From sequence record OK428535.1: a stretch of DNA of 64,000 bases; one strand, 5' to 3'. The notes beneath the pieces were generated by a model, which saw nothing but the letters and a program-made list of their open reading frames with translations, searched no databases and had not been told where the DNA came from. This document shows, piece by piece, positions 6,422 through 64,000 of this stretch. Numbering within the stretch: the first letter of the stretch is position 1; every line of letters starts with the position of its first letter. The DNA is from Escherichia phage vB_EcoM_Lh1B. The position numbers and the translations under genes are program-made.

Positions 6422-6439
6422 GAGATAGATATTATCTAC
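6422..6439 (+). promoter_or_regulatory. candidate phage promoter motif (AT-rich TATATTAC-like family)
   Basis: GAGATAGATATTATCTAC about 33 nt upstream of 6472 start; related motifs at 14951..14978 and 46607..46634. Confidence 0.35.
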
Positions 6440-8559: not shown

Positions 8560-9098
8560 AAATATTCATTGATTTACTCGATGACGAATTTCGTGAAATA
8601 TTTCCAGCGGCGTTGTTCGAGTTTAAGCGTAAGTGTGAAGACTATCTGATACCGAAGAATATCGATCGTCAACACCTCGCTGGACTTATCTCTGCGGCGT
8701 ACGTCAATATCGCGGTAAATGAAGTTCATCAACTCGCGCAACGTATTGCGTGTTTCGAATACAACGACGAAGACATTGAAGACGGCTTCCTGCAGTCTAA
8801 GATGGGTCGCTTCTCACTCGAACTCAAGACCGATGAGGTTATTGATAAGGTCGGTAAAGCCTTTGATGAAATGAAGGACATCGAAATGATGATTAAGATG
8901 TCTGGACCGGAAGCAGGCCCATTGAAAGAAGCGTGGGAACATCTCAACCGCGACGAGTATAAAGAGATGTACATGGGTGAGTTCACCACCATGCTACGTC
9001 ACCTCGAAGCACAGGTCTGGGAGCATATCGTTTCACGTCTGAAAGAAATACTGATTGTGATTGAGCCAATGCAGCCACTCGCTATTAGTAAATTCTAG
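8556..9098 (+). CDS. hypothetical protein
   Basis: 180-aa ORF; start overlaps upstream stop (ATGA), suggesting translational coupling. Confidence 0.55.
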   Translation: MKIFIDLLDDEFREIFPAALFEFKRKCEDYLIPKNIDRQHLAGLISAAYVNIAVNEVHQLAQRIACFEYNDEDIEDGFLQSKMGRFSLELKTDEVIDKVGKAFDEMKDIEMMIKMSGPEAGPLKEAWEHLNRDEYKEMYMGEFTTMLRHLEAQVWEHIVSRLKEILIVIEPMQPLAISKF

Positions 9099-9102
9099 TT
9101 AA

Positions 9103-9137
9103 ACGGACACTCTTCGGGGTGTCCGTAGTTTTATTTT
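9103..9137 (+). terminator. intrinsic terminator
   Basis: Stem ACGGACAC / GTGTCCGT with TTCG-containing loop, then T-tract. Confidence 0.6.
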
Positions 9138-9149
9138 AATCGACCATTA
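9136..9149 (+). promoter_or_regulatory. conserved upstream element TTAATCGACCATTA
   Basis: Same 14-mer (one variant) found at 46657..46670 and 47536..47549, each 17-19 nt upstream of an ATG with AAGGA(G) RBS between. Confidence 0.3.
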
Positions 9150-9166
9150 ATCTAAAGGAGTATTAA

Positions 9167-10090
9167 ATGGACAGCTTTCTTTTTGATTTGGCAGAATCGG
9201 TAAATGTAGATGTAATCGGTATGCGCGAATCCCCGAGTAATTTCTTAAACGGTCTTACTAAAATCGACGAACGTGTGAAATCCAGAAGTGGAGATCCCGC
9301 CATCATCGAGCAATACGCAATAGCCCATTGTGGCGAGATAGGCCAGCACTTTATACCGATTGAGGCGTTCCTAAAGAACTGCTTCGCCGAAGAATGCACC
9401 GCAGACTTCCTGTCTCTTGCCTACGGCTGGCGATACGGGGGTATCCAAATGGAATTTGATCTTAATATTTTTGAACAAGTTCTACTTGGCGACGTTCTCA
9501 CTGAGATACCACGCAGCTGGATAGACAAGATTCCCGGTTGGGCCGTCTCCTTTTCAGTGTGCTATCGCGCTAAAGATATCGGTATCCAAGAAAAGACTTA
9601 CGTTTTCGGTCGGCGAATGTTTAAAGGGAAAGATTGTTTAACAATGATGATTTTTGGAAAACGTATCGAGGGGGAAACCTTTGAAATCGTGGACGTGGGT
9701 GACGGCTTTGTATCCTTGCGTGTGGCGGAAACTGGTACGCCGGCCAATGAGAAAACGTTACGCATTGTCGGCGCTACCATGTTTACATTCTCACTGATCC
9801 CGCACAACCCTACACCCGTCAAACTGAGACAATTAACTGGAAAGAAACGTATCGCCAATTACCACATTGAACCAAAATCTAAACCGACTGTCCTCTCCAC
9901 CGTAAAAGCACAAAGCGAGTATCTTGAAGAATTTGATACTGATACGGAGAAAAGAACACAAGGTAGCAGATGTGCGCATATGCGTCGTGCACACTGGTGT
10001 ACTTACTGGCTCGGTCCACGTGACGGGAATCGGACAAAGATTTTGAAATGGATACCGCCGACATTTGTCAACGGTTCTAAATGCAAATAA
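9167..10090 (+). CDS. hypothetical protein
   Basis: 307-aa ORF with AAGGAG RBS. Confidence 0.6.
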   Translation: MDSFLFDLAESVNVDVIGMRESPSNFLNGLTKIDERVKSRSGDPAIIEQYAIAHCGEIGQHFIPIEAFLKNCFAEECTADFLSLAYGWRYGGIQMEFDLNIFEQVLLGDVLTEIPRSWIDKIPGWAVSFSVCYRAKDIGIQEKTYVFGRRMFKGKDCLTMMIFGKRIEGETFEIVDVGDGFVSLRVAETGTPANEKTLRIVGATMFTFSLIPHNPTPVKLRQLTGKKRIANYHIEPKSKPTVLSTVKAQSEYLEEFDTDTEKRTQGSRCAHMRRAHWCTYWLGPRDGNRTKILKWIPPTFVNGSKCK

Positions 10091-14950: not shown

Positions 14951-14978
14951 AAAAGAACTCAGACAGATATTATCTATC
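14951..14978 (+). promoter_or_regulatory. candidate phage promoter motif (AT-rich family)
   Basis: AAAAGAACTCAGACAGATATTATCTATC, near-identical in its first half to 46607..46634. Confidence 0.35.
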
Positions 14979-20103: not shown

Positions 20104-20956
20104 TATCATTCAGCAAGTTCAAGCGGTCGAAGAGTGGTTTCGGCAAGCGGATATTTACCAATACGGGACACGCGAGCAGCAGCTAGCCAAGTTCTATCGC
20201 ACATTAGGCGACGTCGCTGAAGGTGTGCAGAAGATGGACAACTTGAAAGTGGCGGCGGCCATGGGTCGCTCTCTTTGGGCGTTCGTTGGTCTGTTGCACT
20301 TCGGCAAGCACACGAACGTGGGAGATTTCGTTATTCCACTGGATGCAGCTATAAAAGACCGCACCACGGGAAACACCAAAGAGTTCCGTCTTCATAACCT
20401 TTTTGTTGTTGCCACCGAAGTGGTTGGACTCATATTGCAAGATGAGCACGAGCCCCACAGCTACGTTACCGAGCTGCATAGTTTGGCGCGACAATACCGA
20501 ATGTTGGCGCGTATCTGCGGCCTGGAATTCGGCCGTGTAATATACAACGGACATCGTGTGCTAATCAACACGAAAGGTGAAATGAACGGCATCGGGTTGT
20601 TTGTTCCCGCGTCTGATGATTTTACTGGCGATAAATTGCCTGGTTCTAGACAGATGTCTGGGCCAGCCATCTGTCTGATGTTCCAGACTGTCCTGGACAG
20701 TTGTGTCGCTACGCACCTTGCGCCCTATTGCCACCGGCCGTTTAAACGCGACGAGTTGCCGACAATCAATGCTGCACTCGCAACTACGTTAAACGAACTG
20801 CTGGACAAATATGTTCGTGACTCAGTGCGCTGGAATCGTATCCTGTTCGAACGTGTACCTGAAATAACCGCAGCCTACACAGATGGCGGTGTGAATGTGG
20901 TGATGAATGATGATCTACTTTACTTATTTGAAAGCTTAAAGAGGGATAGTATCTAA
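20096..20956 (+). CDS. hypothetical protein, translationally coupled to thymidylate synthase
   Basis: In-frame ATG at 20096 preceded by AGGAGGAGG; its stop overlaps the thyA start (TAATG). Confidence 0.55.
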
Positions 20957-21987
20957 TGAAACAGTATCTTGAAATGATGCAGAATATTCTGGATGAAGGG
21001 CATGTTAAAGGCGATCGTACTGGGACAGGGACGCTCTCCGTCTTTGGTCGCCAAATGCGTTTTGATTTGCGCAAAGGTTTCCCGTTAGTCACGACTAAGA
21101 AACTCCACCTGCGTTCTATTATTCACGAACTGCTGTGGTTCCTTAGTGGCGATACCAACACCAAATATCTGGAAGATAACGGCGTTACCATTTGGCGGGA
21201 GTGGCAAGATGAAAATGGGAACCTTGGCCCCCTGTATGGGGAACAGTGGAGACGTTGGAAAGATGTGAAACTGGTGCCTAAGAAAAATGCAGCTTTACTC
21301 GAGAAACTGCAAGATGCTGGATACGTGGATTATGGCGACGCGGACGACGGTTCACAAATGTTCGATGCGCGTGTACTTCTGAAACTACACGACCAAATCT
21401 CTAAGGTGATTGACCAACTGCGTAACGATCCTGACAGTCGCCGTATTATTGTCAGCGCATGGAATGTGGGTGAGTTGGATCAAATGGCGTTAGCGCCGTG
21501 TCATGCTTTCTTCCAATTTTACACTCGTGAGCTGTCTATCGACGAGCGGGTGAATTGGGCAGAAGATAACGATAACGAACTCTGGTCTGATTATGTCCAC
21601 AGCACGTACGTACCCGCACCTAAGCGATTAGAGTGGTTGGATAAAGCCAACGTGCCAACCCGTATGTTGTCATGTCAGCTGTATGCACGTTCCCAAGACT
21701 TCTTCCTGGGAACACCGTTCAACATCGCGTCTTACGCATTACTCGTACACATGGTAGCTCAGCAAGTTAACATGGTCCCGGGCGATTTCGTTTGGAGTGG
21801 TGGTGACGTACATCTGTACTCCAACCATCTGGAACAGGCTAAATTGCAGCTGACGCGCCAACCTTTACCTTTACCGAAACTGGTCATCAAGCGTAAACCG
21901 GATTCTATCTTCGATTATAAGTTCGAAGATTTCGAAATCCGGGATCACGTATCCCATGAAAAAATATCTGCACCTGTCGCTATCTAA
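20956..21987 (+). CDS. thyA: thymidylate synthase (ThyA-type) with two insertions
   Basis: 343 aa; [15 protein letters not shown]...[48 protein letters not shown], active-site [27 protein letters not shown] and C-terminal KISAPVAI all match bacterial ThyA blocks in order. Confidence 0.95.
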
Positions 21988-23564: not shown

Positions 23565-24044
23565 ATGTCTATAACTCGGATCGATTATCGTGCCGTAGTA
23601 AAAGAACTGTCCAAAGGTCTTATCGAACTGGACTCCGATGAAGCCCGCAACTGTGGCTTCCTGCCACACATTGCACTGAGTGAGTTCCGTACCATCCGTT
23701 ACGGTGCCGGTCGTCAGAAGGGCGTTACAACACACACCGTTGATATGTCAGCAAAGTTCCACGGCAGCGTTCTGTATCTGGTCCACAATGAATCGTTACG
23801 AAACGAAGTAGTGGAGAAGTTCCATGAAAAGGCTGCCGGGAACGGTTGGTTGACCGTGCACTGTAACTACTTGCCTGAGGGTTGGAAACGCGCGACAGGT
23901 GCTGGTATATCCGGCTACGAGAAATTCGGCTTGGTTATTGTCGACGAAGCGGGTTTCTTCTTCAACAAGTTCAGTTACGATAAAATCTATCGCAGTCTGG
24001 TTGACGTAGTAACGCCAGACGTTGTGATTCACCTGATTAATTAA
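23565..24044 (+). CDS. hypothetical protein
   Basis: 159-aa ORF. Confidence 0.5.
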   Translation: MSITRIDYRAVVKELSKGLIELDSDEARNCGFLPHIALSEFRTIRYGAGRQKGVTTHTVDMSAKFHGSVLYLVHNESLRNEVVEKFHEKAAGNGWLTVHCNYLPEGWKRATGAGISGYEKFGLVIVDEAGFFFNKFSYDKIYRSLVDVVTPDVVIHLIN

Positions 24045-49012: not shown

Positions 49013-49555
49013 ATGAAGCAACTTAATACTCTCGGTCAGGATGATATCAAACCGATTCCATCTGATATGAAACGTGAAGACATTATTCGCCACATCAATC
49101 AGATCGGTGACGTGTTTACGTTGTCCATGAAAGCTATACTGGAAGATGCTTTCGAAACCATTGCCGAATATCCGGTTGAGATTATTCCGCACACCATCAA
49201 CGGCTACCAGCGTTTTCTCGACACGATCACCAAAGGTAGTAGCGGTCGTATTATCGCGGGCTTTATCATCCGCTTTAAGTGCCTGTTGCAAGTAGAGCTG
49301 GGTGACGATGTACTCCGTCGGCTGGAACACGAACTCATTAGCATGTCCGCCAACGACATTCTCGCGGCAGAATCAGGACAAGGTTATAAAGACGGGATGT
49401 CTCTCTGGAAGATTGCCCACCCTGACTTGGGCGATGTTCAACCGCCGTCTGAATTCGATGTGCTTGTAACTTATCTGTTATTGCTGCAAATCAAGAACTT
49501 GTTGATTCGTGCCAATGCGCAGCGTGAAATCGATGCTGGTCAACCGAAAAAATAA
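49013..49555 (+). CDS. hypothetical protein
   Basis: 180-aa ORF. Confidence 0.5.
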   Translation: MKQLNTLGQDDIKPIPSDMKREDIIRHINQIGDVFTLSMKAILEDAFETIAEYPVEIIPHTINGYQRFLDTITKGSSGRIIAGFIIRFKCLLQVELGDDVLRRLEHELISMSANDILAAESGQGYKDGMSLWKIAHPDLGDVQPPSEFDVLVTYLLLLQIKNLLIRANAQREIDAGQPKK

Positions 49556-49603
49556 AACGTACCTCTCTCCAAATGGAGAGAGGTAACGCTTGTTTTTTTT
49601 TTG
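49556..49603. terminator. bidirectional intrinsic terminator
   Basis: Perfect 10-bp stem ACCTCTCTCC / GGAGAGAGGT with AAAT loop, A-run before and 11-nt T-run after. Confidence 0.65.
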
Positions 49604-49605
49604 TC

Positions 49606-50481
49606 TTAGCGCATCTGGTTGGCCATCTGCTCGTCGGAGACAGAGTTGTAGCCACCTGGGGTTGCGTTGACGTCCGGGTTGATACCATCGGTCTGCTGAG
49701 ACGGAGTAAGCCACAGTTTGCGTTCGTAAGGACGCAGACCGTACAGCTTCATACGATCCAGCTCTTTCGCAGCGGCCTGCATCGGACCCCAACCTGTCCA
49801 TTGCTGGGNGGTAAAGGCGATTGACAGTTCGTTAATCTGCGGACCGGTGTTGGTTTCACGCTCACCNATATCCTGGCCAGCGGTTTCCGGAATCATGTTC
49901 GTTAACCACCACGCGTTCTGCGGTTTACGCTGATACGCATCTGGCTCGATGAACAGCACGGTCATGCTGTACATATCCGGCAGGTGGTCAGGAACGTTCG
50001 GGTTGATTGCGGCCAGGCCTGGGTGACCAGTCTGGGGATCACAAACACCGTAAACCAGCCACGCCCACAGCATGTTTTGGTACACCTTCCCGAGTTTATC
50101 CGGGGTGGTGAAGGTAACAGAGGACAGTGCTTCCGTTACCAGACCAGCTTCATACTGGGTACGGTTGTTACGACCCTGCTGAGTTTCAACAGCCGCATGG
50201 CTCAGGGTTTTATCCAGGCCAGTAATCTCGGAGTGAACCTCGATAAAGGACTTGATAGCCTGACGCCACATCTGCGGGTTCGGCATGTAATCCACCCAAC
50301 GAGGGAATTCCATGACGCGCGCGATGACGTTACGACGCAGACGAGAGGCGTTAGTAACGAACTTGCCAACCTGTCCAACCGGGCCGTTTTGGCCCGAGGA
50401 GAACGCGTTGACCATATCGTACTGGCCGCCGTCGACGTGCAGACCCTGATCAGGCAAAATGAGACGATCTTTGATTGCCAT
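49606..50481 (-). CDS. structural protein, possibly tail tube-like
   Basis: 291-aa ORF immediately downstream of the 681-aa major structural gene; assignment is by gene order and size only. Confidence 0.55.
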   Translation of the reverse strand: MAIKDRLILPDQGLHVDGGQYDMVNAFSSGQNGPVGQVGKFVTNASRLRRNVIARVMEFPRWVDYMPNPQMWRQAIKSFIEVHSEITGLDKTLSHAAVETQQGRNNRTQYEAGLVTEALSSVTFTTPDKLGKVYQNMLWAWLVYGVCDPQTGHPGLAAINPNVPDHLPDMYSMTVLFIEPDAYQRKPQNAWWLTNMIPETAGQDXGERETNTGPQINELSIAFTXQQWTGWGPMQAAAKELDRMKLYGLRPYERKLWLTPSQQTDGINPDVNATPGGYNSVSDEQMANQMR

Positions 50482-50484
50482 CTA

Positions 50485-52530
50485 TTAGCTCTCCCGACGG
50501 TAAACTTTGATAGTGGTGTTGAACTGGGTGAGCAGCACACCGCCTTCAGCGATCAGGTCCAGCGTCACAGAGTAACCATTGGATTTATCGTCTGCAGTGA
50601 AGTACGCCTTCGGAGTGACGACAGCAACGTTATCGAGACGGCCTTCCAGACGTTCGATAATTTTGTTCTCAATCATCTTCGCACGTTCATCATCCGTCAT
50701 GGCCGCTTCGCCAGACATGTCCGCCCATACACGGTCGGAAACACGATAGACGTAGGTCATCATGAAGTTGAACAGGGCGTTGTTCAGTACAGAACGATCT
50801 TCGCTGTAGATTGACTGAATCGCCGGAATGAACAAGCGATAGTAGTCGTAGGAACGGGCAGTGATCAGCGACACATCCCAGTCAGACGCATACACTTCGT
50901 TGCCTTTCCACGGCATACTCAGGTCAGTCAGATCTTCGATAATCGTCAGTTCGCCACGGCTGAAACGATAAGCCGGTTTTGCACGACCGTCGCCTGCACC
51001 CAGGTACTTCGAGAAGAAGTTCGCCAGGGAGTAGTTCATCGGAACAGGCTTCTTGTAGGAAGAGTTCTTGATGAACGCCGATTGGCCGGTGACCATACCA
51101 CGTGCAGCCGGAGTGCCGTAATAGGCAGATTCCGGTACCGCTGTGATCAATTCGATCAGGGCGATTTTTGNACTTTCTTCTGTCTGCTCATCGTTACGGC
51201 CTTGGCTGTAAACGTGAGTCGCCAGCGTCAAGAAGGTGTTACGTGAACGACCGATGAAGTTCACGAGCGCAGCTTTAGTATCGAAGCTAAAGCCAGAGTC
51301 CCAGAAACAACCCAGCGAGTATTTCAGCTCGTTGTCGTAACGGACTTTACCGCCATCCGGGAACAGCAGCATTTCACGGCGAACGAGTTCGTCGTAAACG
51401 TCGTTGTTCATGGTACCATCGCTACCACCTTGCAGGTAGTGGATGTTGGATGCGGAGAACACAACTTTACCGGTTTCAGTAGCCGGGTTTACCTGAAGAC
51501 CATCGTAAGGCTGGCCCAGTAAATCATAGCCGCCAAAGATGTCAACCATATACGGGTCAGCAGGCGCATCAGTTGTGATAGCGGCCTGAGCCAAGCCCAG
51601 TACAGTTTCCAGGTTCTCGCGATACAGATAGAACTGCTCGAAAGGACCATAATCTGGCAGCTCGCCAATGTCAGGCATCGTCTGACGATATGCATCCGCA
51701 ACAACAACTTCGAAGTCGAGTTGCGTTCTCATCGGCTGATAGTATGCATCGGGCTTAAAGCTAAAATTGATGCTACTCATGCCAGTGAGAGTTTTCCACA
51801 CTACCGGAGAAGTCACGCCTGCCAGGGTTTCGAACCATTGCAGGGTGTAAACACGACCACCGACTTCATTTTGATAGGAGGAGGTCAGAGCCGGGCTGGA
51901 TTTCTCGCTGAGTGGGATCAGTTTGAAACCGAAACCGTTGACGTCAGCACCCGCATACGGGCCTGCGATATCGAACAACGGATACAGCTTCGATTTCGTG
52001 CCGCCTTCGCCAGTCATCGTCCCCTCGATAACCACACCTGCGCCGATGGCCGGGGTAGTTTCGTCGATTACGACAGAACGGAAGACGATTACCAAACCGT
52101 CAACTTGTTCTTTGATCTTGGGCTTGCCCGAGTTGTCGTACTGAACGATCCCGTTGCTGTCGCGTTCGTAGGACGGAACTTTCGTTTCGAGTACGTCGGC
52201 GAATACGCGAACACTTGCGGTTTTCGCATCTTCAGGGATCAAGCGCTGATACATACACTCGTTTGCGTTAGCGTTGAACATCGCCTGATAGGGCGTGTTG
52301 AACGTCGCGTAGGGGCCTCGCAAGTCAAAGACATTGCGACCAAGCAGAGACAGTGCATTATCCCCGGTTAACGGGAACGCCTCGTTGTCTACCCCGCGCG
52401 CGGCAAAGGTGAAGATCAGCGGCTTATGAATTGCGTCACCCGTAGGGGTACGCNCAAGCTCGGGGACAGAGTTATCCTGCCAACCTTGCTTGTTATTCAA
52501 CGGCGCGCCGTTTCGTGGAATAAAAGTCAT
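50485..52530 (-). CDS. major structural protein, possibly tail sheath-like (or capsid)
   Basis: 681-aa ORF, no enzyme motifs, followed by a ~290-aa partner as in sheath/tube pairs; sheath versus capsid not resolved. Confidence 0.6.
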   Translation of the reverse strand: MTFIPRNGAPLNNKQGWQDNSVPELXRTPTGDAIHKPLIFTFAARGVDNEAFPLTGDNALSLLGRNVFDLRGPYATFNTPYQAMFNANANECMYQRLIPEDAKTASVRVFADVLETKVPSYERDSNGIVQYDNSGKPKIKEQVDGLVIVFRSVVIDETTPAIGAGVVIEGTMTGEGGTKSKLYPLFDIAGPYAGADVNGFGFKLIPLSEKSSPALTSSYQNEVGGRVYTLQWFETLAGVTSPVVWKTLTGMSSINFSFKPDAYYQPMRTQLDFEVVVADAYRQTMPDIGELPDYGPFEQFYLYRENLETVLGLAQAAITTDAPADPYMVDIFGGYDLLGQPYDGLQVNPATETGKVVFSASNIHYLQGGSDGTMNNDVYDELVRREMLLFPDGGKVRYDNELKYSLGCFWDSGFSFDTKAALVNFIGRSRNTFLTLATHVYSQGRNDEQTEESXKIALIELITAVPESAYYGTPAARGMVTGQSAFIKNSSYKKPVPMNYSLANFFSKYLGAGDGRAKPAYRFSRGELTIIEDLTDLSMPWKGNEVYASDWDVSLITARSYDYYRLFIPAIQSIYSEDRSVLNNALFNFMMTYVYRVSDRVWADMSGEAAMTDDERAKMIENKIIERLEGRLDNVAVVTPKAYFTADDKSNGYSVTLDLIAEGGVLLTQFNTTIKVYRRES

Positions 52531-52587
52531 GGAACGTCTCCATATATTCGTCTTAAAGACCTGATGGTCATACTAAGGATCATACTC

Positions 52588-53493
52588 ATGGCACTCGAAA
52601 ACGCTTACAGCGGTAATCCCTTTAATGCACTTGACCTTACTCGCACCAAGGCAGACCTGGAATTAGCCCGTAAACTTAACCAAACTGTCGCACAGTCCGA
52701 TGAAGTTCATTACGTTGTTGAGACCGCTGATGTAAAACCGTTTCCTTTGCCGATTGTTATCGGCGACGACGTTTATGTATACGCAGCCACGTTTACCACG
52801 CTGGATAAGACCAACGAGCTAAAAATACGAAACCCAGTCGAACACGCATTGCGTCTCGACCAGGCTCGCTGGGAATTGGTGTGGAAACGGAGTAATGGTA
52901 AGCTTGCTGCACTGATGGCACAGATGCCCTACCACCATGAGATTTTCAGCAAATGGGTGTCGGATGCGATTACCCACACGTTTGCACTTGCTCCATATCA
53001 AAGTGGGCAAATCAAAGCGTTGGCTGCATTGTTCTCTGTGGGACAGTTCTATAATCACGTCGAAGATGATGTGAAAGCTTTACGTTTGCAGCAGATGCTG
53101 GAGCAACAATTAGGCTTACCTGCGGAACTGTTTGAATCAGTGACAGGCCACACAGAATATCTTTTCCCGCGTAATATCGCAGAATTCGTCGAAATGGTGC
53201 AGGCTGCAGATATCACTCCGCGGGTGCGTGACCTGAGCATTCTGTCTCTGCAGCAGATGTTGAATACCAGCTTCTTCGGGGTGAGTTATGAAAAACAACT
53301 CGCTACTAGCGCCATCGAATATCCGCCTAGTCTCTTCGTTATGATTAAGGCTTGTCTGGATAATAACATGTTTAACCGCAGTCGGTTAGGTGGGATTGTG
53401 AAGAAGTCAGACACCGCTAAGAAACGCGATAAGTTTGAATTCACCTACAACCTTCTGATGAATCAAAACACCAAACCACTGAACATCAAGTAA
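52588..53493 (+). CDS. hypothetical protein
   Basis: In-frame ATG at 52588 with AAGGA RBS; the ORF-track start at 52426 would overlap the divergent gene. Confidence 0.5.
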   Translation: MALENAYSGNPFNALDLTRTKADLELARKLNQTVAQSDEVHYVVETADVKPFPLPIVIGDDVYVYAATFTTLDKTNELKIRNPVEHALRLDQARWELVWKRSNGKLAALMAQMPYHHEIFSKWVSDAITHTFALAPYQSGQIKALAALFSVGQFYNHVEDDVKALRLQQMLEQQLGLPAELFESVTGHTEYLFPRNIAEFVEMVQAADITPRVRDLSILSLQQMLNTSFFGVSYEKQLATSAIEYPPSLFVMIKACLDNNMFNRSRLGGIVKKSDTAKKRDKFEFTYNLLMNQNTKPLNIK

Positions 53494-53503
53494 GAGGCCC
53501 ACT

Positions 53504-56017
53504 ATGGAGAACTGGCTGGTCGCTCACGCCGTTAAAAATGCGTGGCAGCGTCCGTACCTCGATGGGGTGTTGAACATTGCGCCTTTTCGATTAACTGAAA
53601 AGACCGGAGCGATCGGGTTTTTCAAGCACGGGCGTAATCCGATTCCTTNACNGGGCGNGGGGTGGTGGNACGCGTTTGTAATTGACAAGCTCCACCTCAA
53701 CTACGGCAACTTGAGTATCCCTCCTGAGCGCTGGAAGAAACTTACTACGTGTGTAAATAACTTCCATGCGTGGATGCAGGTGTACAACGAAGATGGGACA
53801 ATTATCCCGTCGAACTCTGTGTATTTCTGGCGGACACTCTCTGGTCAGATTTACATGGCGATTCCGCAAACGGAACGCTACAAGTGGTTAGACGACACGC
53901 CGTGTTATCTACGCATTTATGCTGGTAATGATGGCGGCGAAAACGCTCCTGTTGTTAAACCGACGTTCATCGAACCGTATAATCCGCCGAACCCACAACA
54001 GATCCAGATCGTCTTAGACCGTTATAATCTGTTGAAAGGCCAGAAAATCGGCTATGTCGATTTCTGGGTAAACGGAAAGATGATTGCTGATCCTAAGCCC
54101 GCGGATATCAAAGCATGGGATGATGTTGAAATTCGTGTCGACGGCCGCATTCGTCGTGTAATTGAATACCGTTGTGGGGATTTGCAAACGTTCTACTCAA
54201 CGCTTGACCAAACACGAAAATACCTGCTGCACATTCCAAAAGGGGATGGCATTTGGATTTTCAACAACGACTGTGAAATTCAGTTGTTGTGGAAAGGCGA
54301 AGGGCGTTACTACCACCGCCACCGTCATCAGGCCGTGCGTCAATTGACGTGGAACGATATATCGATTCCGTCGATGCGGATTTCGAAATACCGCACCGCT
54401 TTCACTAACCCAATGAATGATATCGACGAACTAACGATTCGTTTATTGATACGTGACGATTTCCTTGACCTGAAGCCGTTGTATAACTCCACCCACACAC
54501 ATGACCTCTATCGTCTTAGTGACGAGCAGATCATCGGTGCGATGGTGGGGGCAAACTCCAACGTACCAGAGTGGACCGCAGCAGCGCTCGAGGAATCGGC
54601 AGCGAATCGGTTAGCGGCAGCCAAACTCCGGAACATCACACGCGATCTCTGCACTGATGCGTACGGCTACAATGCCGCCGCACGTTACAGTGCCGACACT
54701 CCACAGCGTCTGGAACTTACATCCGGTGGCTATCGCGGTACTTTGCCCGACTTACTGGCAACGCTGTCAACTGTATACGAGTACGATGCCGATGGGTTGC
54801 TGTTAGAACATCACCGTAATGCAGGCTACGATGTTTACATCCCTCGCAATCCAGAAGCACGAATCATCGAGGCTATTGCGGGTGAAGTCTCGGATGCGGT
54901 GAAGATTGTTGACAACGCTCCTGACTTTGAAATTGAGCCAGGTTCAAACGTTGGGTTGTGGATTCGAATGGTCATCGGGGAAGTTCCAACCAACGACTAC
55001 TACAAAGCCGAGGAAGGAACGGATTATACTCGCGACGGAAATAAAATCACCTGGACCGTAGATCGGACACGACGTCACCCGACAGTGATTTACGACGACT
55101 TCCATCTGTTCTTCGAAGTGGATGTTAAGGTGTCGGAAGGTCAGATACGTATTCCGATTGTAGCACGCAACCAAGACGGGCAGCAGCGCACGCTGTGGCT
55201 ACCGATGGAAACGGTTGAAGTGTGGTTGAACAACCACCCACTGGTGCACGGTATCGATTACCACACCCGCTGGCCGGAAATTGTGGNGGTTTGTAAAGCG
55301 TGGATGGCGGACGGGGATACAAATAAAGTCTCAGTGCGTTGTCGTGGCGTGACCGGTGAACTCCGTATTCCTAAACATGGTTTCGTGTCAAGCGGACTGC
55401 TGTCTAATAACAGCCAGTTTGATTGCCGTGACGACAAAGTGATTCGTGTCGTGGGTGGCGGCTCACTGCTATTGCGTGACGAAGTCGTGTTCCGTGAAGA
55501 CAACACTGTAGGTGTTGACATCGTGCAAGACGGGTTCCCATACTCGGTCGACGATCCGACTATTCCGTTGCGGACGCTGGTAAGCGGCGATACGTACGAC
55601 TTGCGCGACACNNCCCGTNNTTTNGNCACNCNCGTCGAGGCTTACCTGTCTAACTGGTTCCCGACACCTCCGCCGGTTAACCCGGTACCGTTGCCGTATC
55701 TGTATCACCTCTATTCGCCAACCCTGAACAAAATCTTGTGGGACTACTTGCAAGGTATTCTGATTCTGCGGGAAGACGATCCGGAGTATCGTATCTCGAC
55801 ATCACAGCTGGATGACATCATGGAGCGTTATAAAGACCTCCTGCCGTTTGACCCGGCCTATATCGGTTACGATAAAGCGTTTGTGAAACTGCATCCGCAT
55901 GTGAAGTACGAAACGGTAGAAATCAACGAACTTGGCTTTGCCTTCTTAGACCGCGTCAATGAACGTTATCTGAATGGCGAAGTGCAGCTTAATCAGTATC
56001 TGATAATCAAGGGTTAA
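53504..56017 (+). CDS. hypothetical large protein, likely structural
   Basis: 837-aa ORF with AAGAGG RBS. Confidence 0.6.
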   Translation: MENWLVAHAVKNAWQRPYLDGVLNIAPFRLTEKTGAIGFFKHGRNPIPXXGXGWWXAFVIDKLHLNYGNLSIPPERWKKLTTCVNNFHAWMQVYNEDGTIIPSNSVYFWRTLSGQIYMAIPQTERYKWLDDTPCYLRIYAGNDGGENAPVVKPTFIEPYNPPNPQQIQIVLDRYNLLKGQKIGYVDFWVNGKMIADPKPADIKAWDDVEIRVDGRIRRVIEYRCGDLQTFYSTLDQTRKYLLHIPKGDGIWIFNNDCEIQLLWKGEGRYYHRHRHQAVRQLTWNDISIPSMRISKYRTAFTNPMNDIDELTIRLLIRDDFLDLKPLYNSTHTHDLYRLSDEQIIGAMVGANSNVPEWTAAALEESAANRLAAAKLRNITRDLCTDAYGYNAAARYSADTPQRLELTSGGYRGTLPDLLATLSTVYEYDADGLLLEHHRNAGYDVYIPRNPEARIIEAIAGEVSDAVKIVDNAPDFEIEPGSNVGLWIRMVIGEVPTNDYYKAEEGTDYTRDGNKITWTVDRTRRHPTVIYDDFHLFFEVDVKVSEGQIRIPIVARNQDGQQRTLWLPMETVEVWLNNHPLVHGIDYHTRWPEIVXVCKAWMADGDTNKVSVRCRGVTGELRIPKHGFVSSGLLSNNSQFDCRDDKVIRVVGGGSLLLRDEVVFREDNTVGVDIVQDGFPYSVDDPTIPLRTLVSGDTYDLRDXXRXXXXXVEAYLSNWFPTPPPVNPVPLPYLYHLYSPTLNKILWDYLQGILILREDDPEYRISTSQLDDIMERYKDLLPFDPAYIGYDKAFVKLHPHVKYETVEINELGFAFLDRVNERYLNGEVQLNQYLIIKG

Positions 56018-56019
56018 TC

Positions 56020-57663
56020 ATGGCGAAGATTGCGTCCAAATTAATCGACAAGGATCGCGGGTTCGAAGTCTGGGACCCGAGTGAATTGTACGAACCAAAC
56101 AAACCAACAGGTTACGTACCTAACCCACGTGACCTTATCGTGAACGACATGACCTCCGGCTTTGACCGCGTGGTTAGCGTAAACTATTCGGTACCGTCGT
56201 GGGAAACAGAACCGTTCGGTGGCGTTGGTGTGGCAAACCAAGACGGGCGTCTTAATGGTCACTACCCACTACGCTCTGACAGATATCGCGTCTACGTGGA
56301 CAGCACCAAACTTCCACCGACGATGGTTATCGATGATGCCGTCACTTTCAACGGTCCCGATATCGACGGTGTGCGTATCCTGCGTGGGTCATCTGTAAAC
56401 GATGATGCGGAAATCCTGTCTGGTTATTACAAAGACGGGGTTCTGAAAAAGAACTATCTGCCGGTGCAGACTATCAGTGCGGCTGACGCAGAAACTGTGG
56501 TGAAACAAGCGATTCCTGGGAGCTGTCTGGCTGAAGTCAGTAACGGTGAAGAGTGTACTTTCCTGGTTTACTCTGACACCGGTAACGTTGTTCAGATCGC
56601 CCACGGTCACATCATCAAGACCAATCTGGTGATGGCGCAAGAGACTCCGTCTCGCACTGTGCTAGGTATTAAACTGGTTTCACCGTTCCTGGTAGACGAC
56701 AATGGTACTACGCTGACGCTGCCGATTAACATCCCGCTGGAATCTATTCCGCTGTGGTGTGACATCCAGTACAGCGACGGAACCAAACGCCTACCTATCG
56801 ATGGTTCGCGTGTGAAGTTTAACGGTCTGCGTAACTCTGGTGCACATGACACGTTTTACATCGCTTCAAATGCCGGTAATGAGTTACCTTGCCAGTTAAG
56901 CTATCAGTTGGCTCGCGGTGAAACCTACGGTGGTACTGACATTGTTAAAGATACAATTGTCAAAGACTACACCGCTGTAACCGAAACAGTCGATGGTGCT
57001 TATTCCATGAAGCTGTTTGTGGTTCCGCGTTGGTTGGATGCGAACCGTGGTTATCGTCTGTCGTTCCTGCTGTACAACCTGACACGCGGCCAAGTCTACG
57101 ACGCGACCGCAAACATCCAGTACACCACAGGGACTACATTCGACCCACTATTGATGGGTGTGAAACAGCGTCTGAATGTGCAGGTGGATATCAGCAAAGT
57201 AAATCCACAATTCCGCGCTTTCATCCAGGCGCAGTCTTTCGCCATCACGTTAGTGAACCCAGGTAACGAGTTGAATACCAACTTCCTTATCGAATACCTG
57301 CCTGATGGGCTGGTCTACGGTAATGAAATTTGGGCGGAGTTCAAATACTCTAACGTCAACTACTCCACGCTGAACCTTCGTTGTGGTTGTGCCTCTAAAG
57401 CCGAGTGGCTTAAAGCGTTGTACGAGCCGATTTATCCGCTCTACGATCGTCGTAATGAATCTGAGGCTCCCGAGCCTACACACTTTGAGGTGCATGTCGG
57501 TGGTAAGGTTTACACCCACAGCATCGATGAGTGGTTAAATGAGCAAACGGTAGATTATCGTATCGCTCTGGACGATTCGTTAGTTATTCGCTGGATTCGT
57601 CGCACTCCTACGGATACGCTTAACCTCGCGGCTACGCCAATGCTGGCGCACCACATCGAGTAA
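56020..57663 (+). CDS. hypothetical protein, likely structural
   Basis: 547-aa ORF directly upstream of terminase large subunit. Confidence 0.6.
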   Translation: MAKIASKLIDKDRGFEVWDPSELYEPNKPTGYVPNPRDLIVNDMTSGFDRVVSVNYSVPSWETEPFGGVGVANQDGRLNGHYPLRSDRYRVYVDSTKLPPTMVIDDAVTFNGPDIDGVRILRGSSVNDDAEILSGYYKDGVLKKNYLPVQTISAADAETVVKQAIPGSCLAEVSNGEECTFLVYSDTGNVVQIAHGHIIKTNLVMAQETPSRTVLGIKLVSPFLVDDNGTTLTLPINIPLESIPLWCDIQYSDGTKRLPIDGSRVKFNGLRNSGAHDTFYIASNAGNELPCQLSYQLARGETYGGTDIVKDTIVKDYTAVTETVDGAYSMKLFVVPRWLDANRGYRLSFLLYNLTRGQVYDATANIQYTTGTTFDPLLMGVKQRLNVQVDISKVNPQFRAFIQAQSFAITLVNPGNELNTNFLIEYLPDGLVYGNEIWAEFKYSNVNYSTLNLRCGCASKAEWLKALYEPIYPLYDRRNESEAPEPTHFEVHVGGKVYTHSIDEWLNEQTVDYRIALDDSLVIRWIRRTPTDTLNLAATPMLAHHIE

Positions 57664-63290: not shown

Positions 63291-63872
63291 CGGTTAAAGG
63301 GGTCTGGGAAGCATCAGAAAACGATTAGGTGGTATCGACGTAGGGTAGCTCGTTTTTGGCAGTTTATCGTTTTCTAGGGTCAGTTACGTGCGTTTTAGAG
63401 GGGGTTATGTATCGAGACAGAGAATTTATTTTTGTCGGGGCGAGGAAATTCAGGGAATGGGGATTCAGGATTGTATGTTTTTTAACCAGTTATTAAAAAC
63501 GCTCTAGAAAGCGCTAGAACGAGATTTGTACCAGACCCAGTACACTTGGGTTCCCCCTACCGGAAAATCGCGCCAGCGGGCCGCTGAGAGCGCGAGAGTG
63601 CCATTCCCGTTTCGGTTCCGAGGTGACGGTCGCGGCCGGCGACGACGATCACACGTTGGGTAGCACTTCGTGCCATGTCTGGGTGAAAACTGGATCGTTC
63701 TGTAACCGACACACACTGTCGGTTACTTACGAGTTCTTTGGGTTGTTTAACTCGCTCTAAAATCCCCCTTAGGGGATAATTTAATCTAATTCTCAAAATT
63801 TCTTTTTAAAACAATCACTTAGATTGTTTTTTAGATTGATCCTGTGGATCGGGTCGAAGACCCTTTCCTTAT

Positions 63873-64000
63873 ACGCGTGCGCGTGCGCACACCCGTATCC
63901 TCCAGGATCTTTTAAAATATATAATAATATTAAATATAATAATACCTTTAGGTATTATATTTAATTATTATAATTATTTATATAAATAAATATATTAATA
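63873..64000. other. alternating purine-pyrimidine tract followed by an extremely AT-rich region
   Basis: ACGCGTGCGCGTGCGCACAC (63873-63892) then about 85 bp almost entirely A/T with short inverted repeats, running to the window edge; no coding potential. Confidence 0.4.

Follow-up and report, generated by a model that had tools for sequence, protein, structure and literature searches.

Tail sheath and tail tube proteins of phiKZ-related jumbo phages have already been identified through virion proteomics and cryo-EM. In the Salmonella phage SPN3US, the tail sheath is gp256 (YP_009153550) and the tail tube is gp255 (YP_009153549). Mass spectrometry of SPN3US virions yielded 669 spectra for gp256 and 209 for gp255, with an estimated 264 or so copies of each; the major capsid protein is gp75 (83.9 kDa, 1560 copies), whose gene lies outside this pair (PMC5694885). 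In phiKZ, which infects another host and belongs to another genus, the corresponding proteins are gp29 (695 aa; PDB 3SPE, 3J0H and 9XPF) and gp30 (293 aa; 9XPF). [quoted passage not shown]

Solved structures are also available for the sheath and tube of phiKp24 (gp118/gp119; 8AU1/8BFK) and Goslar (11EI, 36ZA and 11EC), two phages that are distant in sequence and represent other jumbo-phage lineages. In the phiKp24 sheath, extensions at the N-terminus (M1-S21) and C-terminus (A667-G689) link successive rings, and the identities of the solved sheath and tube entries are confirmed in the same study (PMC9700779). On a broader scale, these proteins play the same mechanical role as T4 gp18/gp19 and other canonical contractile-tail proteins, and the sheath fold is conserved with that of canonical sheaths (Aksyuk 2011, cited in PMC9700779).

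Genomic context and organization of the gene pair

The 64,000-nucleotide stretch of DNA analyzed here (hereafter referred to as the window) comes from an SPN3US-like (Seoulvirus) Salmonella jumbo myophage. At the DNA level, the closest records are the SPFM phages (99.6% identity for SPFM4), SPN3US stands at 98.7%, and the entire 64-kb window is collinear with the SPN3US virion genome at 96-97% identity. The window contains 247 N at 225 sites, four of which fall within the gene pair (49809, 49867, 51171 and 52454) and give rise to four X residues.

Open reading frames of 681 and 291 aa had been described on the same strand by the first-pass annotation, and their coordinates proved exact, with both genes on the minus strand (Table 1). 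The gene boundaries agree with the RefSeq annotation of SPN3US, in which the protein lengths, the 3-nt spacing between the genes, the flanking genes, the terminator and the divergent upstream region are all alike. Sheath-then-tube order is likewise common to phiKZ, and the order and orientation of the pair are retained in seven relatives from six genera, with the sheath gene directly preceding the tube gene in a shared orientation. Neighboring genes match phiKZ gp28 (Pfam PF25614, 9.7e-65; a PDB sequence search with this protein returned no match at 1e-3), gp27 (PDB 9xqd_G, 1e-47) and gp26 (PDB 9xqd_a, 4.6e-66). Judged by these sequence matches, the neighborhood is syntenic with the phiKZ gp26-gp30 block. 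The pair anchors the tail module of an SPN3US-like genome, and its presence bears out that the window belongs to a phiKZ-related jumbo phage.

Table 1. Features of the tail sheath and tail tube locus, in window coordinates unless protein residues are stated
Feature	Position	Strand	Description
Bidirectional intrinsic terminator hairpin	49560..49585	both	11-bp stem, 4-nt loop
Tail tube gene	49606..50481	-	291 aa, 32.7 kDa; SPN3US gp255 / phiKZ gp30 ortholog
Tail sheath gene	50485..52530	-	681 aa, 75.7 kDa; SPN3US gp256 / phiKZ gp29 ortholog
Shine-Dalgarno-like GGGAGAG of the tube gene	50489..50495	-	within the final codons of the sheath gene, 7 nt from the tube ATG
Outer protease-resistant gp29PR domain	sheath residues 143-372		PF20961
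Inner sheath region	sheath N-terminal region and residues 373-681		
Divergent intergenic region, 57 nt	52531..52587	-	between the sheath ATG and the ATG of the gp28-like gene
GGAG Shine-Dalgarno of the sheath gene	52538..52541	-	
TATG, candidate late-promoter start	52569..52572	-	

Sheath-tube pairs are found in all contractile injection systems, and on these grounds the two genes could also be read as the sheath and tube of a non-phage system (tailocin, eCIS or T6SS-like) residing in a bacterial genome. Such an origin has a vanishingly small probability, considering that the window is collinear with SPN3US throughout, that it encodes a prohead protease (Pfam Peptidase_S80, 1e-84), a large terminase (PHROG) and RNA polymerase beta-subunit genes (according to the SPN3US annotation), and that every match is to jumbo phages.

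Identification of the tail sheath and tail tube proteins

On the basis of homology, the 681-aa protein is identified as the tail sheath, the ortholog of SPN3US gp256 and phiKZ gp29. It matches PHROG 3242 'tail sheath' over residues 1-681 (1.7e-296), and its outer domain matches Pfam phiKZ_gp29PR at 4.2e-79 (profile positions 1-231 of 231). Among solved structures, the best relative is phiKp24 gp118 (8au1, 1.2e-72), followed by the Goslar sheath (11ei and 36za, 3e-69) and phiKZ gp29 (9xpf, 3.2e-58), all of which align over about residues 14-678, and the phiKZ gp29 fragment (3j0h/3spe) matches at 9e-19. The nearly full-length phiKp24 alignment, covering 14-678 of 681, extends into the equivalents of the M1-S21 and A667-G689 extensions. 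Although phiKZ gp29 shares only approximately 26% identity with this sheath (PSI-BLAST, PMC5105663), the homology is full-length and the domain plan, an outer gp29PR domain and an inner region formed by the N- and C-terminal parts, is common to both. The Pfam scan of the sheath at E<=1 returned phiKZ_gp29PR and one chance match, with no T4/P2-type canonical sheath domain; kinship to T4/P2-type sheaths is structural, drawn from the literature, with no match at the level of sequence.

The 291-aa protein is similarly identified as the tail tube, the ortholog of SPN3US gp255 and phiKZ gp30, by a match to Pfam PF23806 (Phage_TTP_14) at 1.4e-90 and 304.1 bits (cut-off 27), which aligns residues 4-290 with positions 5-288 of the 292-position profile. 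Its top solved relative is the Goslar tube (11ec, 1e-34), ahead of phiKZ gp30 (9xpf_G, 4.6e-23), a full-length homolog, and phiKp24 (8bfk, 1.9e-17), and canonical tube families in Pfam gave no match to it at E<=1. T4 gp19 has approximately 160 aa, and the tube protein encoded in the window is much larger. The best PDB alignment extends to residue 260 of 291, which leaves the last ~30 residues uncovered. When modeled with AlphaFold2 from its sequence alone, the tube protein gave an all-helical artefact (pLDDT 33.4, pTM 0.22).

Both proteins are nearly identical to their SPN3US counterparts. The sheath has 99.1% amino acid identity to gp256, differing by six substitutions (SPN3US to window: E321D, T324A, S360A, A450T, A513G and E514D) and two X residues, and the tube shows no substitution relative to gp255, with two X positions only. 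The computed masses equal those published for gp256 and gp255 (PMC5694885). By analogy with this 99-100% identical phage, both proteins would be expected to be present and abundant in virions of the source phage, an expectation taken from the literature on SPN3US.

The possibility had been raised that the 681-aa protein could equally be an HK97-fold major capsid protein, with the 291-aa protein as a capsid partner (decoration or scaffold). Its size and lack of enzymatic motifs are compatible with that idea (the latter was borne out, as Pfam gave structural families only), and PHROGs places the family of the 291-aa protein in the category 'head and packaging / virion structural protein'. However, profile searches matched sheath and tube families and, both in PHROGs and in Pfam at E<=1, no capsid family, and PDB matches consisted of tail sheaths and tail tubes only. 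In SPN3US, moreover, the major capsid protein is the product of another gene, gp75 (PMC5694885), and the tailless particles of a gp64 amber mutant kept the capsid and portal proteins but had fully lost gp255 and gave only 8 spectra of gp256, against 686 otherwise (PMC5105663). The capsid assignment of the 681-aa protein is refuted by the missing capsid match and the identity of the SPN3US capsid gene, and a capsid role for the pair as a whole is exceedingly improbable.

Another reading comes from the records of Proteus phage 7 (MT679221) and Salmonella phage MET_P1_082_240 (OQ383623), which label the pair 'tail connector protein' and 'baseplate wedge protein'. These two labels are automatic and are contradicted by solved structures, and the other annotated records that match the pair carry the labels 'tail sheath' and 'virion structural protein'. 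In addition, the full-length homology is to helical sheath and tube models from three cryo-EM studies, and a copy number of ~264 does not suit a connector or a wedge, leaving this reading very unlikely.

Taken with the profiles, the solved structures, the near-identity to SPN3US and the published virion proteomics (PMC5694885, PMC5105663), the preferred interpretation of the first-pass annotation, a sheath/tube pair of a contractile-tailed jumbo phage, was upheld. It is almost certain that the locus encodes, in this order, the tail sheath and the tail tube of an SPN3US-like jumbo myophage. Given that the identity of these proteins is established in related phages, the assignment has little import beyond correct annotation; in public records, the ortholog labels 'virion structural protein', 'head and packaging', 'tail connector' and 'baseplate wedge' should be replaced by tail tube and tail sheath.

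Proposed tail assembly

Homology with the phiKZ and phiKp24 tails suggests that hexameric rings of the tube protein would pile up on the baseplate to form a conduit for DNA and proteins, around which hexameric sheath rings would polymerize; with approximately 44 rings, each of the two proteins would be present in ~264 copies. The inner sheath domains and the N- and C-terminal extensions would knit the rings into a mesh, and the outer gp29PR domain (residues 143-372) would face outward without making assembly contacts. Triggering of the baseplate would then be expected to cause contraction of the sheath and to drive the tube through the cell envelope.

Terminator and proposed expression signals

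The pair had also been described as bracketed by strong bidirectional terminators. This holds downstream of the tube gene (49560..49585) and fails upstream of the sheath gene, where the terminator scan of 52531..52587 finds no hairpin and folding is no better than that of shuffled sequences (z = 0.19 and -0.54). A scan of the whole window against Rfam at gathering thresholds gave 0 matches.

What this upstream region does contain is a block conserved in eight genomes from six genera. Located before the sheath gene and opposite the gp28-like gene, which begins on the plus strand at 52588, it reads in the sheath sense CCTTAGTATGACC-N4-GGTCTTTAAGACGAAT..TATGGAGA, or, in its extended form, CCTTAGTATGACC-N4-GGTCTTTAAGAC, with two small palindromes. 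The block includes TATG, and late promoters of the phiKZ nvRNAP carry TATG, with G = +1 (PMC4666361). The extended motif is unique within the window. As a recurrent promoter class, TTAGTATGAC was rejected, given three matches with at most one mismatch against 3.0 expected and an exact match at the sheath site only; the merged pattern TTARTMKGACCAT was likewise rejected as a recurrent motif (five matches against 7.4 expected). Since these counts are near expectation, it is the TATG and the conservation across genera that speak for a promoter. No relevant transcriptome or promoter map of SPN3US emerged from a literature search. The block is put forward only tentatively, at less than even confidence: in Seoulvirus and Erwinia jumbo phages, it may act as a late promoter or regulatory site. 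If this is true, the 'TATG, G = +1' rule of the phiKZ nvRNAP would extend to enterobacterial jumbo phages, and the block might reveal extra promoter determinants that work on phiKZ could not define.

Between the two genes, only 3 nt separate the TAA stop of the sheath gene from the ATG of the tube gene, a gap that suggests co-transcription and probable translational coupling. The junction is kept in the seven relatives, with the Shine-Dalgarno variants GGGAGAG, GGGGGTG or CAGGAG. The sheath and tube genes seem to make up a single late transcription unit, which probably begins in the 57-nt divergent region, with the conserved TATG as candidate nvRNAP late promoter. Translation of the tube gene would probably proceed by coupling across the gap, using the Shine-Dalgarno sequence within the sheath gene, and the unit would terminate at the conserved bidirectional terminator, which may also serve the convergent plus-strand gene.

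This terminator sits in a 50-nt gap between the tube gene and the convergent 180-aa gene on the plus strand, lies between an A-run (49546..49556) and a T-run (49590..49602), and is scored on both strands by the terminator scan. Its folding energies are -26.2 and -26.5 kcal/mol (z = -7.9 and -7.1), with none of 200 shuffled sequences folding as well. Hairpins with differing stem sequences occur in SPN3US, SPAsTU, Asesino, Huxley, Kwan, EarlPhillipIV and CR5; five pairs show compensatory changes, and the structure is kept in five other genera. The MAFFT alignment of the terminator is out of perfect structural register for Kwan, so pair counts understate the conservation, for which the folds of individual sequences provide better evidence. 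Compared with SPN3US, the window has 2 nt more in the T-run of this terminator. Studies that map late transcription in Seoulvirus phages can use both the conserved terminator and the block upstream of the sheath gene as landmarks.

Identity of the sheath and tube proteins

The two same-strand ORFs singled out by the first-pass annotation were recovered with identical coordinates in the ORF listing, and its reading of them as the sheath and tube genes of a contractile-tailed jumbo phage proved right, with matches in Pfam, PHROGs and PDB pointing to these two functions. The 681-aa protein covers the entire Pfam profile PF20961 "Bacteriophage phiKZ gp29PR" (4.2e-79, residues 143-372) and aligns over residues 1-681 with the PHROGs family phrog_3242 "tail sheath" (1.7e-296). 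Its only matches among PDB sequences are tail sheath proteins, namely phiKp24 gp118 (8au1, 1.2e-72, residues 14-678), Goslar (11ei and 36za, about 3e-69), phiKZ gp29 (9xpf, 3.2e-58) and the phiKZ gp29PR fragment (3j0h and 3spe, 9e-19). Likewise, the 291-aa protein matches PF23806 "Phage tail tube protein" (Phage_TTP_14; 1.4e-90, residues 4-290), and only tail tubes were found among PDB sequences: Goslar (11ec, 1e-34), phiKZ gp30 (9xpf_G, 4.6e-23) and phiKp24 (8bfk, 1.9e-17). In phiKp24, 8AU1 is the outer sheath and 8BFK the inner tube (PMC9700779). A single-sequence AlphaFold2 model of the tube protein was unusable (pLDDT 33).

The first-pass annotation had also proposed that the 681-aa protein could be the major capsid protein. 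Since a capsid match, an outcome that would count against a sheath/tube pair, was obtained for neither protein in Pfam, PHROGs or PDB at any threshold used, this alternative falls. Published experiments on the type phage SPN3US assign gp256 to the tail sheath (75.7 kDa, 669 spectra, about 264 copies), gp255 to the tail tube (32.7 kDa, 209 spectra, about 264 copies) and the major capsid protein to gp75 (1560 copies) (PMC5694885). In tailless particles of an SPN3US gp64 amber mutant, gp255 is missing altogether and 8 of 686 sheath spectra are left, with capsid and portal proteins still present (PMC5105663). The computed masses of the present pair, 75.7 and 32.7 kDa, equal the gp256 and gp255 values.

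Coordinates of the gene pair, flanking features and segments differing from SPN3US
Feature	Coordinates	Strand	Evidence or remark
Tail sheath gene, 681 aa	50485..52530	-	ORF listing over 46-56 kb
Tail tube gene, 291 aa	49606..50481	-	ORF listing over 46-56 kb
Convergent gene, 180 aa	49013..49555	+
Hairpin, 11-bp stem, 4-nt loop	49560..49585	both	terminator scan, folding
Divergent intergenic region, 57 nt	52531..52587		sheath ATG to + strand ATG 52588
TATG	52569..52572
phiKZ gp28 homolog	52588..53493	+	Pfam PF25614, 9.7e-65
phiKZ gp27 homolog	53504..56017	+	DUF7193; PDB 9xqd_G 1e-47; Goslar 11pb_C 1.1e-100
phiKZ gp26 homolog	56020..57663	+	PDB 9xqd_a 4.6e-66
Insertion, ~987 bp	9098..10084		relative to SPN3US
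ORF, 307 aa	9167..10090	+	PHROG 6160 (unknown function), 7e-40; no Pfam match
Segments without megablast-level match to SPN3US	20162..20956; 21549..21714
Last ~256 bases	63745..64000		beyond the end of SPN3US

The public labels of orthologs are inconsistent: PHROG 3185 places the tube family in "head and packaging", RefSeq uses "virion structural protein", and in Proteus phage 7 and MET_P1_082_240 the two genes are annotated "tail connector protein" and "baseplate wedge protein". Solved structures identify their products as tail tube and tail sheath.

Relationship to SPN3US and other phages

The 3.3-kb region containing the pair shares 99.6% identity with nine Salmonella SPFM phages and 98.7% with SPN3US (genus Seoulvirus), whose RefSeq record NC_027402 has equal gene boundaries and the labels "tail sheath" and "virion structural protein". 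Compared with SPN3US, the sheath differs at six residues (321, 324, 360, 450, 513 and 514), and the tube is identical save for two X positions. These are well-characterised genes of a known phage species group. Sheath/tube pairs also belong to bacterial contractile injection systems; against such an origin, the entire window is collinear with SPN3US 177623..240413 (96-97% identity), encodes a prohead protease (Pfam Peptidase_S80, 1e-84) and a large terminase (PHROG), and corresponds to an SPN3US stretch with annotated RNA polymerase beta-subunit genes. The window is therefore phage genome.

Several segments depart from SPN3US. The insertion, which among 33 matching Seoulvirus-like records occurs in just two (EC001 and JN03), carries the 307-aa ORF, an accessory or mobile gene. 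The two segments without megablast-level match have either been replaced locally or diverged strongly. A MazG-like 308-aa ORF (PHROG 10269, 8e-79) overlaps the first, and the second falls inside the ORF that corresponds by collinearity to thymidylate synthase in SPN3US. The last bases of the window overrun the end (240413) of the linear SPN3US record, and the source record is thus permuted or extended relative to it.

Within the pair, the sheath stop codon (TAA, 50485..50487) is separated by 3 nt from the tube ATG at 50481, and a Shine-Dalgarno-like GGGAGAG lies 7 nt ahead of this ATG, within the final sheath codons. Four single N bases inside the pair produce four X residues. Across the window there are 247 N at 225 sites, mostly single-base and densest at 0-8 kb and 28-40 kb, leaving many ORFs with X; they seem to reflect the quality of the assembly or consensus and not the biology. 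Matches to the public SPFM7, 8, 9, 12 and 14 records that exceed 1.6 kb are likewise broken into 26-27 pieces, a fragmentation suggesting that these sequences are similarly interrupted.

Synteny and sheath conservation

Because homologs of phiKZ gp28, gp27 and gp26 diverge from the sheath gene, the phiKZ gp26-gp30 block is preserved. A PDB sequence search with the gp28-like protein gave no match at 1e-3. In phiKZ, gp27 serves as the framework protein in the outer baseplate (PMC13250141) and gp26 as its cross-linker, and gp28 belongs to a vertex-binding protein family. One arrangement, in which a plus-strand gene converges on tube/sheath and gp28-like and gp27-like genes diverge from the sheath, is common to SPN3US, SPAsTU, Asesino, Huxley, Kwan and EarlPhillipIV (five genera). 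CR5 (unclassified Derbicusvirus) keeps this order, but has no annotated plus-strand gene beside the tube gene.

SPN3US gp256 and the phiKZ sheath share about 26% identity (PMC5105663). The phiKZ tail contains 43 tube rings inside 44 hexameric sheath rings; its outer sheath region makes no within-ring contacts, and the inner region, which comprises the N- and C-terminal domains together with two extensions, provides a mesh that keeps the sheath together in contraction (PMC13250141). In all diverged relatives, conservation is lower in the outer gp29PR domain than in the C-terminal inner region (60.7% versus 73.9% in CR5; 79.1% versus 87.3% in Asesino), a pattern that fits an exposed domain dispensable for assembly.

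Flanking regulatory regions

Strong bidirectional terminators had been proposed on both sides of the pair, of which only the tube-side one was found. The hairpin there, in the 50-nt gap between the tube gene and the convergent gene, lies between an A-run and a T-run and is called on both strands by the terminator scan. Its folding energies are -26.2 and -26.5 kcal/mol, compared with about -8.5 in shuffles (z = -7.9 and -7.1; 0 of 200 shuffles fold as well). Every relative carries a strong hairpin with adjoining A- and T-runs at the equivalent site, with stems differing in sequence (CCTCTCTCC, CCTCACTCC, CCCACTCC, CCCCACTC and CGACCCC), and RNAalifold retains the stem with compensatory changes at five pairs despite imperfect alignment. 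Together, the compensatory changes and the recurrence in every relative support a functional bidirectional terminator.

On the sheath side, the scan detected no terminator-like site in the 57 nt, and folding was not better than in shuffles (z = 0.19 and -0.54); the segment separates two divergent genes and is not a terminator. In the same relatives (six genera), the region measures 57-59 nt and is conserved on the sheath-sense (minus) strand, with the consensus CCTTAGTATGACC-N4-GGTCTTT(A)AAGACGAAT..TATGGAGA-N7-ATG and the minus-strand core CCTTAGTATGACC-N4-GGTCTTTAAGAC. Within this block are two small palindromes, GACC/GGTC and GTCTT/AAGAC, together with a conserved TATG resembling the phiKZ late-promoter start. 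Since late promoters of the phiKZ non-virion RNA polymerase require TATG, with its G as +1 (PMC4666361), this TATG might, by analogy, tentatively be regarded as a candidate late start, from which transcription would yield a 39-nt leader. The block is a candidate late promoter or operator, a promoter reading limited by the shortness of TATG and by the occurrence of the extended motif only once in the window. Part of the block may instead be conserved as the Shine-Dalgarno sequence of the opposite gene. A literature search found no SPN3US transcript map.

Other recurring motifs

The 14-mer TTAATCGACCATTA occurs three times on the plus strand (9136, 46657 and 47536; one copy with 1 mismatch), compared with 0.45 matches expected. 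The copies end about 18-20 nt before the start codons at 9167, 46690 and 47567, which suggests a promoter class. The near-palindrome GATAGATATTATCT (5 matches versus 0.23 expected) recurs at 6424..6437 and 14962..14978, in intergenic sequence upstream of the plus-strand gene 6472 and between the divergent genes 14463 (-) and 15010 (+), with weaker copies at 23978 and 48172; it may represent a second promoter or operator class.
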